From Candidatus Kaiserbacteria bacterium RIFCSPHIGHO2_01_FULL_53_31 (GTDB taxonomy: Bacteria; Patescibacteriota; Minisyncoccia; Phycocordibacterales; Phycocordibacteraceae): a stretch of 59,528 nucleotides of DNA. Where the stretch lies: positions 1-59,528 of the forward strand of contig MFKU01000014.1 in the NCBI GenBank assembly GCA_001781095.1, given 5' to 3'. The notes under the pieces are model-generated. The model was not told where the DNA came from. It made no database searches and saw only the letters and a list, made by a program, of their open reading frames with translations. Shown here one piece after another: positions 32,677 through 37,538 of this stretch (position 1 is the first letter of the stretch; every line of letters starts with the position of its first letter). The position numbers were made by a program, and so were the translations under genes.

Positions 32677-33063
32677 ATGAACGACTGTATTTTCTGCAAA
32701 ATTGTGGCGGGTGAGATTCCTGCCGACAAGGTATATGAAGATGAGGACTTTCTTGCCTTCTTGGATATCCACCCCGCGTCATGTGGGCACACACTGATTA
32801 TTCCCAAAAAACACTATCGATGGGTATGGGACCTGCCTGCCGACAGGCAGGCGTCCCCGAACATTGGCGCCTACTTTGAAGTGGCTCAGAAGATCGCTCG
32901 CGCTCTGCAAAAAGCATTTGATCAAGAAGCAATTTGGAGCGGCATCAAGGGAGACGAGGTGCCGCACGCACATGTCTCTATCCTTCCTCATTCGAAGACG
33001 AAAGGAAATAAAAAAGATTTTGCCGGTAACGCAGCAAAAATCCGAGCAAATCTGGCTGCTTGA
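32677..33063 (+). CDS. HIT family nucleotide hydrolase
   Basis: CIFCKIV.GEIP, AFLDIHP, GHTLIIPKKH, VPHAHV. Confidence 0.92.
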   Translation: MNDCIFCKIVAGEIPADKVYEDEDFLAFLDIHPASCGHTLIIPKKHYRWVWDLPADRQASPNIGAYFEVAQKIARALQKAFDQEAIWSGIKGDEVPHAHVSILPHSKTKGNKKDFAGNAAKIRANLAA

Positions 33064-33087
33064 CAATAGACAACATTCGTGTATACT
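33060..33087 (+). promoter_or_regulatory. Sigma70-type promoter of the DGR target gene
   Basis: TTGACA (33060) - 16 bp - TATACT (33082); RBS AGGAGG at about 33240 before ATG 33251. Confidence 0.7.
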
Positions 33088-33250
33088 ATACAGATAGTTC
33101 TTTGATATCAACTTGCGTTCGCCACAGCAGAAAGTGGCTTTCCGTCAGCTGGCGGATCTAGGCCGTTCTCTGCTGTGGCGAACTCACTAACGAGAAGACC
33201 ACCAATACTGAGGCTACCCGCAAAGGAGTAGCGCTCAATAGGAGGAACCT

Positions 33251-33949
33251 ATGAGCAAAGCAACATTCGGACAGGCGCTTCAGGCGTTGAATCTGATTCA
33301 CGCAAAGGACCCGACTGCAGAACGCCTCACGGCGCTCTACAACTCCGGCATCCTCGCGGATGTGCTCGACGCAGACCTTTCGAAGGTCGAACGCGATGCT
33401 GTCCGTGCTGCGCTCAAGCTCGGAAGCATCTTCACTCGCAACGAGCACGGCCACGTTGTCGTGACCTTCACCGGTCTCGACATTACGGGTGCCGAGGAAA
33501 TCGCTCGGCTCGAAGCAGGCGGGTACCGCGTGGGCAACTACGCGAAGCAGTGCTTCACGAGCACGAACGACGACAGCTACGACAAGTGTCATCGTCTCGT
33601 CGCCGGTCAGCAGTATCGGATCGCCCTCGTCCCCGGAAAGGACATCGAGCGCGATTCCGAGCGGACAACCGCAGCCCTGCAGAAACTCGGCGAGAAGTGC
33701 GGCTATGGCAAGGCGCTCGGCGGACATATCCCGCGAATCCGAGAGATCATCTCGGACAAGCAGATGGAAGAAATGGGGATCTGGTACATCGCAGCCCTCC
33801 ATGACCCCATCAAGAATTCCGGCGGCGACCCGAGTGTGCTCGACGTCTACCGCTACGATGGCGAGCGATGGGTCAGCACCTATTGGGGCTCTCCCGACAG
33901 TCAGTGGGATGGCAGTGGCGCTTTCGCGTTTCCCGTTGCCGCAAGTTAG
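33251..33949 (+). CDS. DGR target (variable) protein, 232 aa, VR at C-terminus (probable C-type lectin-like fold)
   Basis: The last ~43 codons match the downstream TR except at adenines. The fold call is inferred from typical DGR targets. Confidence 0.9.
   Translation: MSKATFGQALQALNLIHAKDPTAERLTALYNSGILADVLDADLSKVERDAVRAALKLGSIFTRNEHGHVVVTFTGLDITGAEEIARLEAGGYRVGNYAKQCFTSTNDDSYDKCHRLVAGQQYRIALVPGKDIERDSERTTAALQKLGEKCGYGKALGGHIPRIREIISDKQMEEMGIWYIAALHDPIKNSGGDPSVLDVYRYDGERWVSTYWGSPDSQWDGSGAFAFPVAAS
33818..33944 (+). repeat. DGR variable repeat (VR)
   Basis: 127 bp, 119/127 identical to 34297-34423. Mismatches at 33827, 33834, 33842, 33848, 33891, 33908, 33912 and 33915 all face an A in TR. 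Confidence 0.95.
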
Positions 33950-34003
33950 CACTTAGGACTTGGAACCTTGGTCTTTTGGACTTAGGAACTTTGTTCTTCG
34001 TAT

Positions 34004-34039
34004 TTGGGCTCCGCTCGCTTCACTGCGCGCGGAGCCCAA
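34004..34039. other. Hairpin downstream of VR (candidate DGR homing hairpin or terminator)
   Basis: TTGGGCTCCGC / GCGGAGCCCAA 11-bp stem about 55 bp after the target stop. Confidence 0.65.
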
Positions 34040-34070
34040 TCTGTTTTGATACACTGCAAGTGGCAGTAGG

Positions 34071-34456
34071 TGCATACGCGGGAGATTACGGTTTCCCGCT
34101 ACCGAACCCAGTATCCATACATCCAGAATATTCGCGATTACGGTTTCGGGTACCGTGGTGTATGCAGACACTTCAAAAATTGAAGATACTTGGTGTGGAG
34201 TGCTCTGGCATTACAGATGCCGAAGACCGCGGGACCCCCGCAGACAGCCCCGAGAGTATTCAAGGGTGCAGTGATATGGACGGCACTCCACACATCTCCG
34301 GCGGCAACCCGAATGTGCTCAACGTCAACCGCTACGATGGCGAGCGATGGGTCAGCACCTATTGGGGCTATCCCGACAGTCAGTGGAATGACAATGGCGC
34401 TTTCGCGTTTCCCGTTGCCGCAACTCCCTTCACTTCTCGCCCCGCTATACGCGGGG
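34071..34456 (+). ncRNA. Putative DGR template RNA (structured leader + TR + 3' hairpin); ends approximate
   Basis: Multiple stems upstream of TR and a CCCCGC-TATAC-GCGGGG hairpin at 34440-34456. Confidence 0.55.
34297..34423 (+). repeat. DGR template repeat (TR)
   Basis: Adenine-retaining copy of VR (AAC/AAT codons) 479 bp downstream of it, with an A-free 3' segment GGCGCTTTCGCGTTTCCCGTTGCCGC. Confidence 0.95.
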
Positions 34457-34818
34457 TTGAGTTTTGCCTAGCTGCCCGTTCCAACCACCCAGCATTTTAC
34501 CGATTTCTTCAATCGGGACGGAGAGCGCAACGTATTTCTTCGTATCGAGTGATTTTGTCTCCCAGAGCACGAGTAACATCACCTTCAGGGTATCCAGTTT
34601 GCGAATGGCGAGCCGTACCCATGGCTGTTTTTCGGTTTTAGCGAGGAAAGTTGCAGAGGAGATCGCTTCTATCGTTTCTACAAAGAGCTCGTCTATCTTT
34701 CCGCCGAGAGTGTATCGATGTGTCTTGGGAATGGTCTGATAATATCCGTACCAAAGGATATATGCTGTCTTCAAACGCTCAAGCACGGGGAGAAGTCGTT
34801 GGGGGGGGGGTTACTCAT
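34445..34818 (-). CDS. avd: Avd-like four-helix-bundle accessory protein; ATG 34818 is out of frame by one base at the G10 tract, in-frame GTG at 34786
   Basis: IPKTHRYTLGGKID..LDTLKVMLLVLWETKSLDTKKY..EEIGKMLGGW matches the Avd/bAvd family pattern; located between TR and RT. Confidence 0.85.
34801..34810. repeat. G10 homopolymer shared by the 5' ends of avd (-) and RT (+)
   Basis: Exactly ten G at 34801-34810. Confidence 0.9.
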
Positions 34819-34856
34819 GGACGCTCGTATACGACGATATCATTTCGGTCGAGAAT

Positions 34857-35822
34857 TTGCTTGAAGCTTGGCGCGAGTTCAAACGAGACAAGCGCAAACG
34901 CGCTGATGTGCAGGAGTTTGGGAGAAACCTGATGAGCAATGTTCTCGACCTACATCGAGAACTTGCGACCGGTACGTACCAGCATGGTGGCTATCATCAT
35001 TTCAAGATAAGCGATCCAAAACCGCGTGATATCCACAAGGCGAGTGCGCGCGACCGGCTCGTACATCACTCGCTTCATCGAAAACTATATCCATTCTTCG
35101 ATCGCATCTTTATTGCTGACTCATATTCTTGTCGTATCGAGAAAGGAACGCACAAGGCGATGAATCGCTTTCGCGCATTCGCCTACAAAGTTTCGCAGAA
35201 CAACACACGCACCTGCTGGGTTCTCAAGTGCGACATTCGCAAATTCTTCGCGTCTATCGATCACGAAGCGCTCGTCCGTATCTTGCGTGCACATATTTCT
35301 GATGAGCGTCTGATGTTGCTTCTTGTAAATATTATCGGCAGTTTCAATTCAGACACTGTGGGGAGAGGTCTCCCGCTCGGGAATCTCACATCACAGTTAC
35401 TGGTAAACATTTACATGAACGAGTTTGATCAGTTCGTGAAGCATAAAATCAAAGCGAAGTATTACATCCGCTACGCTGATGATTTTGTGATTTTCTCCCA
35501 TGACCGAACTCATCTGGTAGAAATACTTCCATATATGGACGTATTTCTACGTTACCAGTTGAAACTTAAAATGCATCCGAACAAGGTTTCCATCGCAACC
35601 CTCTCTTCTGGCGTCGACTTTCTGGGCTGGGTCCATTTTCCCGATCGCCGCGTGCTACGTACGAGCACAAAGAAGCGAATGTTTAGAAACATACAAGAGA
35701 AGCAAGGGCACGAGGCAACAGTCCAGTCGTATCTCGGCCTGTTGAGTCATGGGAATGCTTGGAAACTTCAAGAAAGTGTAAAGTCCTTGCACGAGGTAGC
35801 GCTCGCGAAGCATTCGGTTTGA
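34857..35822 (+). CDS. DGR reverse transcriptase; RT-like sequence extends 5' of the TTG start, ATG 34762 joins in frame only with G11 or G8
   Basis: DPKPRDI, RDRLVHH, KGTH, CDIRKFFASIDH, GLPLGNLTSQ (DGR-type), YIRYADDF, VDFLGW. No maturase or endonuclease tail. Confidence 0.95.
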   Translation: MLEAWREFKRDKRKRADVQEFGRNLMSNVLDLHRELATGTYQHGGYHHFKISDPKPRDIHKASARDRLVHHSLHRKLYPFFDRIFIADSYSCRIEKGTHKAMNRFRAFAYKVSQNNTRTCWVLKCDIRKFFASIDHEALVRILRAHISDERLMLLLVNIIGSFNSDTVGRGLPLGNLTSQLLVNIYMNEFDQFVKHKIKAKYYIRYADDFVIFSHDRTHLVEILPYMDVFLRYQLKLKMHPNKVSIATLSSGVDFLGWVHFPDRRVLRTSTKKRMFRNIQEKQGHEATVQSYLGLLSHGNAWKLQESVKSLHEVALAKHSV

Positions 35823-35857
35823 CAGGGAAGGCATACCTAAAGTAGTATATTGGTATG
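35819..35857 (+). promoter_or_regulatory. TA promoter with operator-like inverted repeat
   Basis: TTGACA (35819) - 18 bp - TAGTAT (35843). The inverted repeat CATACC/GGTATG (35832/35852) overlaps the antitoxin ATG. Confidence 0.55.
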
Positions 35858-36130
35858 AATACGAAGACAACCATCACCATCAAAACCGACAAGAAGTTGC
35901 GTGACGCAGCGAAGCGCACGGCCATGAAATTGGGCATTCCACTCTCAACCGTGATGAATGCCCAACTTGCGCAATTCGTCTCCGAAGGGCGTTTTGAGGT
36001 GTCGCTCACTCCCCGTCCTGAAAGGGTACGAGCATGGGAACGCATAAGTGAAGAAATGGATCAACACCCGGAGCGCTATAAAGTGTTTACGAATGCCGAT
36101 GACTTGCTTGTTGATCTCGGTCTCGCATGA
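35855..36130 (+). CDS. RelB/DinJ-like ribbon-helix-helix antitoxin
   Basis: TTITIKTDKKLRDAAKRTAMKLGIPLSTVMN RHH pattern; ATGA overlap with the toxin. Confidence 0.8.
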   Translation: MNTKTTITIKTDKKLRDAAKRTAMKLGIPLSTVMNAQLAQFVSEGRFEVSLTPRPERVRAWERISEEMDQHPERYKVFTNADDLLVDLGLA

Positions 36131-36390
36131 TCATTGTCTACGCGTCCAGCTTTAAAAAGCAGATTCGCCACTTGCCTCCGGGGATCAAACGGGCACTGTC
36201 TGAACGATTGCGTCTGTTCGTGGACATGCCATACCACCCATTACTCGACAATCACGTATTGAAGGGAGATCGCCGCGGATACCGTAGCATCAATATCACC
36301 GGTGACTGGAGAGTTATCTATGAATATGTTGACGCAACAAACGTACGACTCATCGAAATAGGCACGCACCACGATCTGTACGGTACCTAG
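36127..36390 (+). CDS. RelE/YafQ family mRNA interferase toxin
   Basis: SSFKKQ, LDNHVLKG, RSINITGDWRVIY, IGTHHDLY. Confidence 0.88.
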   Translation: MIIVYASSFKKQIRHLPPGIKRALSERLRLFVDMPYHPLLDNHVLKGDRRGYRSINITGDWRVIYEYVDATNVRLIEIGTHHDLYGT

Positions 36391-37538
36391 CCGAGTGCTT
36401 CGATGCCGGGCAGGGTGCCGCCGTGCGCTAGGAATTCGAGCATGGCGCCACCGCCCGTAGACACGAAGGAGAATTGAGACAGGAGCCCGAGTTTCTCGAT
36501 CGAGGCGACCGTGTCGCCACCACCGATGGTGGAATCGGTGCTGGACGAAGCAACGGCGCGCGCGACCATATTCGTAGCATCAGCAAATCCATTTTCGTAA
36601 TTCCCAAGGGGACCGTTCCAGAGAATCGACTTCGCCCTGCGTATAAGCTCGCCGAGAAGGACCGTTGTTGCCGGCCCGACATCAAGAATAATCTCGTCGG
36701 AACGCACTTCCTCCACCAATGCAACACGAGCGTGTGAACGCGCGTCTGCGCTCGCGAGGGCGCTTTCCGGAACCACGAGAATGTCGATCGGCAGAACGAG
36801 TTTCGGGTTCGAGAGGAGTTCTTTAATTTGCGCTGAACCGCCGCTGCCGACGAGGGACTTCCCCACCACGTGTCCCGCCCCTTTGAGGAAATCGCTTGCA
36901 AGCGCGCCACCGACAAATACGCGGTCGTAGGTCGCGATGAGCGCGCGGAGCACTGGTTCCTTGGTAGAGAATTTAGCGCCGCCGATGATCGCAAGCGCGG
37001 GGTGCGTCGGTGTGCGTGCTCTCGTGAGCGCCGCGACTTCTTCTTCGAGGAGGATGCCGGCATACGAGGGAAGAATCTTTGGTAGACGGACGATAGATGC
37101 GTGCGTACGGTGGCAGGTATCGAAGGAATCTTCCACGAATACATCGCCGAGTGCAGCGAGCTCATGCGCAAACGTCACGTCGTTCATTACTTCCCCGCGG
37201 TTACGACGCAAGTTTTCAAGAACGAGCACTTTCCCCGGCATAAGATCGCGAACAGCCGCGCGCGTGGAAGCACCGATCGTTTCTGGAAAGAATGAGACAC
37301 CGGGCAATAATTTTCTAAGTGCATCTGCAACGGGCGCCAGTGTTTCTGTACCCTTCTGACCAAGGTGACTTATGAGTACGACGCGTGCACCGCGCTGAGT
37401 CAAATAGCGGATCGTCGGTATCGTACGACGCAAGCGATACTCGTCGGCGATGACGCAATGTTCCGTCGGCACGTTTAGCGTGGCGCGGACCAGTATGGGG
37501 ATATTCTCGAAGAGTCCGATGTCTCGAACGAAGCGCAT
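36387..37538 (-). CDS. pgk: Phosphoglycerate kinase
   Basis: ISHLG, LENLR, HRTHAS, GGAKFSTK, WNGPLG, GGGDT, STGGGA. Confidence 0.95.
   Translation of the reverse strand: MRFVRDIGLFENIPILVRATLNVPTEHCVIADEYRLRRTIPTIRYLTQRGARVVLISHLGQKGTETLAPVADALRKLLPGVSFFPETIGASTRAAVRDLMPGKVLVLENLRRNRGEVMNDVTFAHELAALGDVFVEDSFDTCHRTHASIVRLPKILPSYAGILLEEEVAALTRARTPTHPALAIIGGAKFSTKEPVLRALIATYDRVFVGGALASDFLKGAGHVVGKSLVGSGGSAQIKELLSNPKLVLPIDILVVPESALASADARSHARVALVEEVRSDEIILDVGPATTVLLGELIRRAKSILWNGPLGNYENGFADATNMVARAVASSSTDSTIGGGDTVASIEKLGLLSQFSFVSTGGGAMLEFLAHGGTLPGIEALG

Follow-up and report, generated by a model that had tools for sequence, protein, structure and literature searches.

A diversity-generating retroelement (DGR) was analyzed in a stretch of 59,528 nucleotides (nt), contig MFKU01000014.1 of Candidatus Kaiserbacteria bacterium RIFCSPHIGHO2_01_FULL_53_31, which is called the window below. 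The source genome is 667 kb in size, is assembled in 16 contigs, and is 94.9% complete. The element lies between the hit and pgk genes. A target gene on the plus strand (33251-33949) encodes a protein of 232 amino acids (aa) and ends in the variable repeat (VR, 33818-33944, plus strand). Downstream of it lie a structured leader and the template repeat (TR, 34297-34423, plus strand), the avd gene on the minus strand (34445-34786), a tract of ten G residues (34801-34810), and a reverse transcriptase (RT) gene on the plus strand, from about 34821. This order and these orientations correspond to architecture B3. The element is very probably a chromosomal DGR of the type found in candidate phyla radiation (CPR) bacteria, and it would diversify the C-terminal 43 residues of the target protein.

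The VR, which covers the last 43 codons of the target gene, was aligned with the TR by a repeat search over 127 nt without gaps and with 94% identity. Eight mismatches were counted by script, and the TR carries A at all eight of them (six A>G, one A>T, and one A>C). All eight fall on codon position 1 or 2 of the open reading frame (ORF) 33251-33949 and are non-synonymous, changing the TR-encoded residues to those of the VR as N>D, N>S, N>D, N>Y, Y>S, N>D, D>G, and N>S. With 26 A among the 127 TR bases, the hypergeometric probability that eight random sites would all fall on A is 1.2e-6. Of the 26 adenines, 24 lie within positions 1-98, positions 99-125 are A-free, and the last two A end the repeat. 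An earlier note on this DNA had described the gapless 127-bp pair, the eight amino-acid-changing mismatches at TR adenines only, and the 24 adenines ahead of an A-free 3' stretch, and all of these descriptions were reproduced. The genome-wide search for remote VR copies proposed in the same note found no further TR or VR copy elsewhere in the 667-kb genome.

The A-free 3' segment of the VR (33916-33942, plus strand), recognized by its composition, has 67% G+C and is identical over its 27 nt to the TR counterpart (34395-34421). No difference of the kind that separates an initiation of mutagenic homing (IMH) site from IMH* was found inside the repeat. By analogy with known DGRs, the A-free segment would act as an IMH-like anchor. 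An inverted repeat with 15-nt arms that are 93% complementary (34004-34039, plus strand) lies 60 nt 3' of the VR and is followed by a T-rich stretch; a target-gene terminator and a DGR hairpin are its two candidate roles.

The RT gene (34821-35822, plus strand) has a frame that is open from 34743, with homology by 34830. The motif GLPLGNLTSQ is located at 35367-35396 (LGNLTSQ at 35376-35396), and YADD is located at 35472-35483. RTs of the DGR type carry the motif [LIV]GxxxSQ instead of the form of group II intron or retron RTs. The protein matches RVT_1 in Pfam. Its best match in the PDB is 8ub7_A, which we take to be the phage bRT (154.8 bits, E 3e-44, 328 aa), and the alignment with this solved RT begins at residue 9. 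The group II and retron-type RTs in the PDB scored 60.1 bits or less (E 2e-15 or weaker). Phage records matching the RT numbered 142, known DGR phages among them, and all were below 40% identity. The 667-kb genome has this single RT. As judged from its motifs and similarity scores, the RT is DGR-like.

The avd gene is assigned to the bAvd family by its match to PF22296 (44.7 bits, cut-off 40). Such an accessory gene is optional among DGRs in general and is a defining feature of architecture B. Its core ORF runs from an internal GTG, and the conserved N-terminus extends to the G tract. The earlier note had stated that an Avd-like gene and an RT follow the TR; the RT motifs and Avd itself were verified, and the word "follow" was found not to fit avd, which is encoded on the minus strand, antisense to the TR.

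The target protein had no match in Pfam or NCBIfam, its family is unassigned, and no signal peptide was seen by eye. At E<=1e-3, 128 homologs were found, all of them unnamed or labeled "hypothetical protein". A Pfam search of 103 of the target homologs at E<=1 gave nothing consistent, and a search of the ESM Atlas with the target returned only unnamed Minisyncoccota clusters. The AlphaFold2 model of the target has a predicted local distance difference test (pLDDT) score of 86.5, with residues 61-230 mostly above 90, and the VR makes up the last three strands. The fold expected around the VR of a DGR is of the C-type lectin or Ig kind; chains with the C-type lectin fold were present among the Foldseek matches only at E about 1-2. 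The target may have a C-type lectin fold that has diverged, or it may be a new VR scaffold. Most CPR VRs were left without a fold class in the main text of Wu 2018 (PMC5758913). Upstream of the target gene, a consensus scan found, by pattern alone, a promoter-like site (33060-33087, plus strand; TTGACA, 16 nt, TATACT; 11 of 12 positions). An inverted repeat with 25-nt arms, 84% complementary and 23 nt apart, is located at 33114-33186 between this promoter-like site and the target start.

Natural alleles of the target were compared in public protein sequences. The target protein of the window belongs to a 90% cluster of five sequences. The alleles P0121 (the protein of the window), P0001, and P0123 are all 232 aa long, and residues 1-192 are identical in the alignment. 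They differ at 12 VR codons, and all 12 carry TR adenines (AAY for Asn, TAC/TAT, GAT/GAC, and ACC). At the protein level, every allele residue is reachable through changes at TR adenines alone. The expectation in the earlier note that variation would be confined to TR-adenine positions thus agrees, at the protein level, with the public alleles at 12 of 12 codons. The three public target alleles indicate that the DGR has recently been active. P0001 and P0123 agree at every variable codon in the 5' part of the VR, and only the final three variable codons distinguish them. This pattern, limited to the 3'-most variable codons, fits a partial replacement that starts from the 3' end. A further sequence, P0122, has the VR of the window and one substitution outside the VR.

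Four metagenome runs (X4, X5, X8, and X10) were also compared with the locus in the form of assembled Logan contigs, in which the organism is present at a depth of 3-8. The X5 and X10 contigs stop exactly at 33826, one base 5' of the first variable site. The stretches without cover (33827-33860 in all four runs and 33909-34009 in X5 and X10) are not evidence of variation, because the VR/TR repeats also break contigs. A metagenome scan with the RT gave a best match of 76% identity and no locus of the same strain, hence no allele comparison at the nucleotide level. One contig each of X4, X5, and X8 (849-1613 nt) matches 34255-34378 with 14 differences that are not adenine-specific; they probably represent a TR or VR that belongs to a related element of some other organism in the same samples.

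Relatives of the RT were collected from genome contigs (at least 588) and metagenome contigs (at least 590). The best 80 loci of each set, with 61-76% RT identity and nearly all from metagenome-assembled genomes (MAGs) of Patescibacteria, were compared. An RT homolog is present in 11 of 18 genomes of the same genus and in 4 of 12 genomes of other families in the order, none above 68% identity. In all 75 loci with enough upstream DNA, avd is located directly upstream of the RT on the opposite strand. Architecture B3, TR-(avd)-RT, makes up 90% of the CPR set in the main text of Wu 2018. An inverted avd is thus the usual state in this group. In 61 of 80 loci, a TR/VR pair lies at the same positions and has 80% or more of its mismatches at TR adenines. 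According to the main text of Roux 2021 (PMC8144416), the Patescibacteria lineage forms DGR clade 2, with targets without recognizable domains and with activity below average; the element of the window, by its Patescibacteria relatives, probably belongs to this clade. Two of the related loci, L091 and L092, have an identical RT, VR, and tract and are separated by a single-base insertion inside avd, about 138 nt upstream of the RT, which shifts the frame in one of them.

The sequence ahead of the TR shows a conserved organization. An extended -10-like box TGATACACT (34047-34055, plus strand) is the putative promoter of a template RNA. TAnnnT occurs at a fixed place ahead of the leader in 29 of 30 aligned loci; in the window the hexamer reads TACACT and follows a TG. 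Metagenome contigs have loose ends that begin at 34060-34067, just after this box. The structured leader of 233 nt (34061-34293, plus strand) contains two hairpins tipped with GATTACGGTT, an invariant ATACTTGG, and a long-range helix of 12 bp. This helix is formed by 34193-34204 with 34282-34293, encloses two small hairpins, and ends 3 nt before the TR.

Conservation of the leader structure was measured in several ways. At a threshold of E<=0.01, a covariance model built from 30 sequences gave a match in the window and in 65 of 80 loci; every match is on the plus (RT) strand, immediately upstream of the TR. In nine of the 15 unmatched loci, the DNA upstream of the RT is shorter than about 830 nt. 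With blastn, the leader element was detected in 42 of 80 loci. RNAalifold gave 36 leader pairs, 27 of them with compensatory changes. In the MAFFT alignment, 96.7% of cells were paired, compared with 36-49% when the partners were slid, and none of 500 shuffles reached any of the measures. Similarly, in the TR-proximal leader of 35 aligned loci, 20 of 25 pairs were compensatory, and each pair of the long helix shows 8-18 double changes. An Rfam search of 33000-36000 returned nothing at E<=1. The depth of metagenome contigs over 34010-34211 is about 800-1164, compared with about 7 elsewhere in the locus, and hundreds of contigs of other organisms match this stretch at 88-95%, more than match the RT core. 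This peak arises because the template-RNA leader is conserved across many organisms.

The 3' end of the predicted template RNA follows the TR closely. A conserved box CTCCCTTCACTT (34424-34435, plus strand) lies directly after the TR and reads CTCTCTTCATTT in most relatives among 62 TR ends. It is followed by a putative intrinsic terminator, a hairpin with a T-run (34436-34467, plus strand; scan match at 34439-34457), which overlaps the avd stop (34445-34447). A hairpin of -8 kcal/mol or lower follows the TR in 59 of 62 loci, and in 42 of these it begins 11-13 nt past the end of the TR. The 10-nt tail beyond the hairpin holds at least seven T in 43 of 62 loci. With the -10 box, the leader, the TR, the post-TR box, and the terminator in this order, the TR thus seems to make up a self-contained unit of about 400 nt, in which the structured part lies upstream of the template. 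The TR is predicted to form its own transcription unit, with an RNA of about 400 nt from 34061 to about 34465, apart from the RT.

The post-TR box is complementary to leader positions 34175-34184. This pairing is mostly invariant, and one compensatory case (L029) stands against mismatches in the window and in loci of the L024 type. A primer duplex of box and leader as a demonstrated feature was not upheld, the covariation being weak, and it is kept here as a possible pairing.

The simple-sequence tract, G10/C10 at 34801-34810, is located between the divergent avd and RT genes. Such a tract is present at the avd/RT junction in 132 of 138 non-redundant relatives. It is a G run of 7-14 nt (mode 10) in 117 loci, a C run in 1, and a repeat of 2-nt units in 5, of 4-nt units in 7, and of 7-nt units in 2; the other 6 loci have G6 only, and a unit of 3 or 6 nt occurs in none of the 138. 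The length of the tract varies between records with identical or almost identical RTs. L133 (10 G) and L140 (8 G) show 18 internal differences over 1.36 kb, of which the VR accounts for 15 and the tract for 2. Similarly, L010 has 11 G compared with 10 G in L091 and L092, L079 has 13 G compared with 11 G in L155, and L030 has (GT)10 compared with (GT)7 in L116. Five other record pairs have equal tract lengths. Within the strain of the window itself, an X4 contig has 9 G with no other difference, and X5 has 10 G.

Several observations count against the DGR interpretation or narrow it. Only 8 of the 26 TR adenines are changed in the allele of the window, and the read-level test was limited to contigs and hence gave no spectrum of single-nucleotide variants. 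The top NCBIfam match of the RT is a group II maturase model. The match of Avd to NF033474 (56.9 bits, E 2e-15) is under the 80-bit cut-off, and Avd had no match among PDB sequences at E<=1. Foldseek with the target model found nothing at E<=0.001 in PDB or BFVD, and no C-type lectin fold was thereby shown. The ends of the template RNA are predicted from sequence alone. The frame of the RT has no ATG, GTG, or TTG between the stop at 34740 and its first canonical in-frame start, TTG 34857, and conserved residues begin from 34830. Similarly, avd has a conserved N-terminus that starts directly after the tract; the avd frame carries a TAA immediately upstream of the tract, and the minus-strand ATG close by is in another frame. 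As assembled, the genotype may consequently yield RT and Avd in small amounts or not at all. The earlier note had called the element complete; this holds for the components, all of which are present, and not for the RT and avd frames, which have no in-frame canonical start at the assembled G10.

The maturase match is what could be cited for the view that the locus is not a DGR at all and that its repeat arose by plain duplication or gene conversion next to a retron or group II RT with no connection to it. That match reaches 145.9 bits against a cut-off of 300 bits, which is below half, and together with the PDB scores it speaks against the refuting outcome named in the earlier note, an RT that groups with group II introns or retrons. 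The restriction of the mismatches to adenines, the restriction of the allele differences to adenine codons, the presence of an Avd gene, and the A-biased repeat pairs in the same cassette of the relatives all contradict this view, and it is extremely improbable. The missing start codons could also result from a homopolymer miscount, with the true avd and RT being ordinary and in frame. Homopolymers are error-prone in assembly, the 9-G contig comes from another run, and one added G would restore both frames. However, record 21 of X5 independently has 10 G with no other differences over 34184-35434, and the subclade assemblies from other sources are out of frame too, unlike what random error would give. 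An assembly error is thus improbable. If the tract is taken as real, the element may be phase-gated, with the gate placed inside the overlapping 5' ends of avd and RT, OFF in the assembly, and with mutagenesis only in a slipped subpopulation. In the window, a change of +1 G or -2 G would bring the RT in frame with ATG 34762 on the plus strand and, likewise, avd in frame with ATG 34818-34816 on the minus strand. The window and 11 relatives form a subclade that shares the motif 'G-run, T, TRCTCATGG' (about 10 of the 12 are distinct), and both ATGs need the same tract change in 11 of 12 loci (the window and 10 of 11 relatives). The exception is L091, in which the near ATG of avd is in frame and that of the RT is not. 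This locking of both ATGs to one tract change, the variable tract length among records with identical RTs, the repeat units of 1 nt (118 loci), 2, 4, or 7 nt and never 3 or 6, and the below-average activity of clade 2 in Roux 2021 all agree with gating, as does the absence of an in-frame ATG after the tract in 67 of 138 loci. However, both genes are in frame in 0 of 12 subclade loci. An in-frame ATG upstream of the tract was found in about 18 of 65 poly-C loci, which is about the chance level of 1 in 3, and with several candidate ATGs per side some in-frame ATG is easily found. The upstream in-frame ATGs were accordingly not supported as the regular starts of avd and RT. In addition, 71 of 138 loci do have an in-frame ATG after the tract, so the RT there would not be frame-gated, and the three VR alleles indicate that the element of this species works. 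Phase gating by frame is thus a tentative explanation and is rather unlikely to be correct in this form.

The tract may instead be a promoter or RNA element, namely a spacer just 5' of a -10 box for a leaderless RT mRNA, a slippage site for RNA polymerase, or both. The frame would then be irrelevant, and the subclade RT would use TTG 34857 or a non-canonical codon as its start. Of the 71 loci in which an in-frame ATG follows the tract, 21 have this ATG exactly 13 nt past it, and in 18 TAnnnT, 7 nt, and then the RT ATG come directly after the tract (L008, L035, L064, L066, L070, L072, and others). Such an arrangement points to an RT mRNA that is leaderless, for which the tract would be the promoter spacer. 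The frame states also look random, and many of the loci without an ATG have an in-frame ATT or ATC at the Ile that is conserved in the K/R-I-Q-F of relatives. On the other side, the hexamer after the tract in the window is TTACTC, not TAnnnT, and no start codon is present at a leaderless distance, and the leaderless-promoter reading was rejected for the window on the basis of this hexamer. A start at TTG 34857 would lose the conserved YDDIISVEN, whose third-position changes fit translation and whose region is covered by the alignment with 8ub7_A from residue 9. To our knowledge, non-homopolymer repeats of 4 and 7 nt are not RNA-polymerase slippage sites, which counts against slippage. We regard a promoter or RNA element as plausible, with less than an even chance of being the right explanation. 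Whether as a frame switch, a promoter-spacer rheostat, or a site of polymerase slippage, the tract is a candidate control point in each case.

From these features, a mechanism can be proposed for the DGR. The TR would have an RNA to itself, about 400 nt long, running from the -10 box to the terminator and made separately from the RT, and RT and Avd would bind this template RNA. The leader would do the job of the downstream Spacer of BPP-1 by forming a stop helix at the 5' edge of the TR, and it may also provide a primer strand that pairs with the post-TR box, akin to the primer:template duplex of BPP-1. Complementary DNA with random bases opposite the adenines would then replace the VR, anchored by the A-free 3' segment, and the length of the G/C tract would set the amounts of RT and Avd. 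In its full form, this proposal joins a rearranged, self-contained template RNA, in which the leader is the stop helix and possibly the primer strand, with a mutator under a hypermutable G/C-tract switch of the on/off or rheostat type; G10 would leave no in-frame AUG, and diversification would occur only in rare slipped cells. As a whole it is speculative, and we doubt that every part of it will hold.

The cassette was also compared with known systems. Relative to the CPR B3 DGRs of the main text of Wu 2018 (PMC5758913), the gene order and strands are the same, and the layout described there does not differ from the present one. CPR DGRs have a C-terminal VR and TR adenines in AAY codons, as here. 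As in clade 2, the present element is encoded by a cell and not by a virus, and its target has no recognizable domain or transmembrane segment, which is how the main text of Roux 2021 (PMC8144416) describes clade 2 targets. The structured leader, the post-TR terminator, the junction tract, and the missing starts are not mentioned in the main texts of Wu 2018 and Roux 2021, supplements aside. A literature search found no paper that links DGR avd/RT to simple-sequence tracts, and an earlier description in supplements or in Paul et al. 2017 is possible; it also found no paper on a CPR template-RNA leader, with supplements and Paul et al. 2017 lying outside the search.

The prototype DGR, that of Bordetella phage BPP-1 (mtd-avd-TR-brt), shares with the present one the adenine mutagenesis from TR to VR, the RT and Avd, the VR at the 3' end of the target, an A-poor and G+C-rich 3' anchor, and an RNA that needs structured flanks. 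In contrast, BPP-1 is phage-borne with avd on the same strand upstream of the TR, whereas the present element is chromosomal with avd antisense and downstream of the TR, and its RT is below 40% identity to phage RTs. As described in the Handa preprint (10.1101/2023.10.23.563531), the priming adenosine of BPP-1 lies in a 140-nt Spacer downstream of the TR, and its stop duplex pairs sequences upstream of the TR with sequences downstream of it. Here, downstream of the TR there are just 12 nt and a terminator, and the structured 233 nt lie upstream of it. The survey in that preprint covered just 40 nt upstream and 100 nt downstream of each TR. The tract can be compared with contingency loci. These undergo phase variation through homopolymers or short repeats, for example in Neisseria, Haemophilus, Campylobacter, and the fim promoters of Bordetella. 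The present tract is alike in being a G/C run of 7-14 nt or a repeat of 2-, 4-, or 7-nt units at the 5' junction of divergent genes, in its varying length among otherwise identical copies, and in a unit that is never a multiple of 3. It is unlike them in that the in-frame state is not enriched and in being known from sequence alone.

The surroundings of the DGR were compared with those of related genomes. The genes that flank it are HIT (32677-33063) and PGK (36387-37538, minus strand), and the 3.3 kb between them (33064-36386) hold the target gene, the template RNA, avd, the RT, and a RelB/YafQ pair. No phage genes are present in this island, which matches the earlier description of a chromosomal element between hit and pgk without phage genes nearby. 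In same-genus genomes without an RT match, PGK and HIT are adjacent and tail to tail, with gaps of 11 nt (G007), 58 nt (G004), 251 nt (G002), and 453 nt (G006). Since the two genes are adjacent there and 3.3 kb apart here, the cassette is therefore regarded as an inserted island. As judged from this gene context, the cassette with RelB/YafQ is a 3.3-kb insertion between hit and pgk.

The cargo of the island, placed between the RT and pgk (35855-36390), is a RelB/DinJ antitoxin gene (35855-36130, plus strand) and a YafQ/RelE-type toxin gene (36127-36390, plus strand), both recognized by Pfam and NCBIfam matches. This toxin-antitoxin pair was rejected as a regular partner of such DGRs, as 0 of 160 related loci carry one. 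The stop of the YafQ-like toxin gene overlaps the pgk stop by 4 nt (36387-36390), and the right edge of the island therefore abuts the end of pgk. The G+C content is 60% in the target gene, 47-50% in the RT, avd, and toxin-antitoxin genes, and 52% in the whole window. Six of 160 related loci (L152, at 64% identity, L015, L101, L044, L075, and L082) also have a HIT-family gene a few kb or less from the DGR. These genes may mark a shared insertion neighborhood or may be there by chance.

As a DGR, this element is of a known kind with the standard CPR layout, and it adds little in that respect, since CPR bacteria are already known to be rich in DGRs. The layout of the RNA and the tract are clade-wide features and, with the possible gating by the tract, are the potentially more novel part. 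The three alleles provide proof of activity, and with one RT, one target, and no remote VR, the element is a clean natural example; its defined insertion site indicates that the cassette moves as a unit. If the proposed control structures ahead of the template are true, they would show how the priming and stopping of a DGR can be rewired, and the template RNA would be a compact and well-bounded RNA for engineering targeted mutagenesis. Similarly, if the slippery repeat does gate the mutator, it would provide a second layer of bet-hedging, which would limit the cost of hypermutation in a genome of 0.67 Mb.

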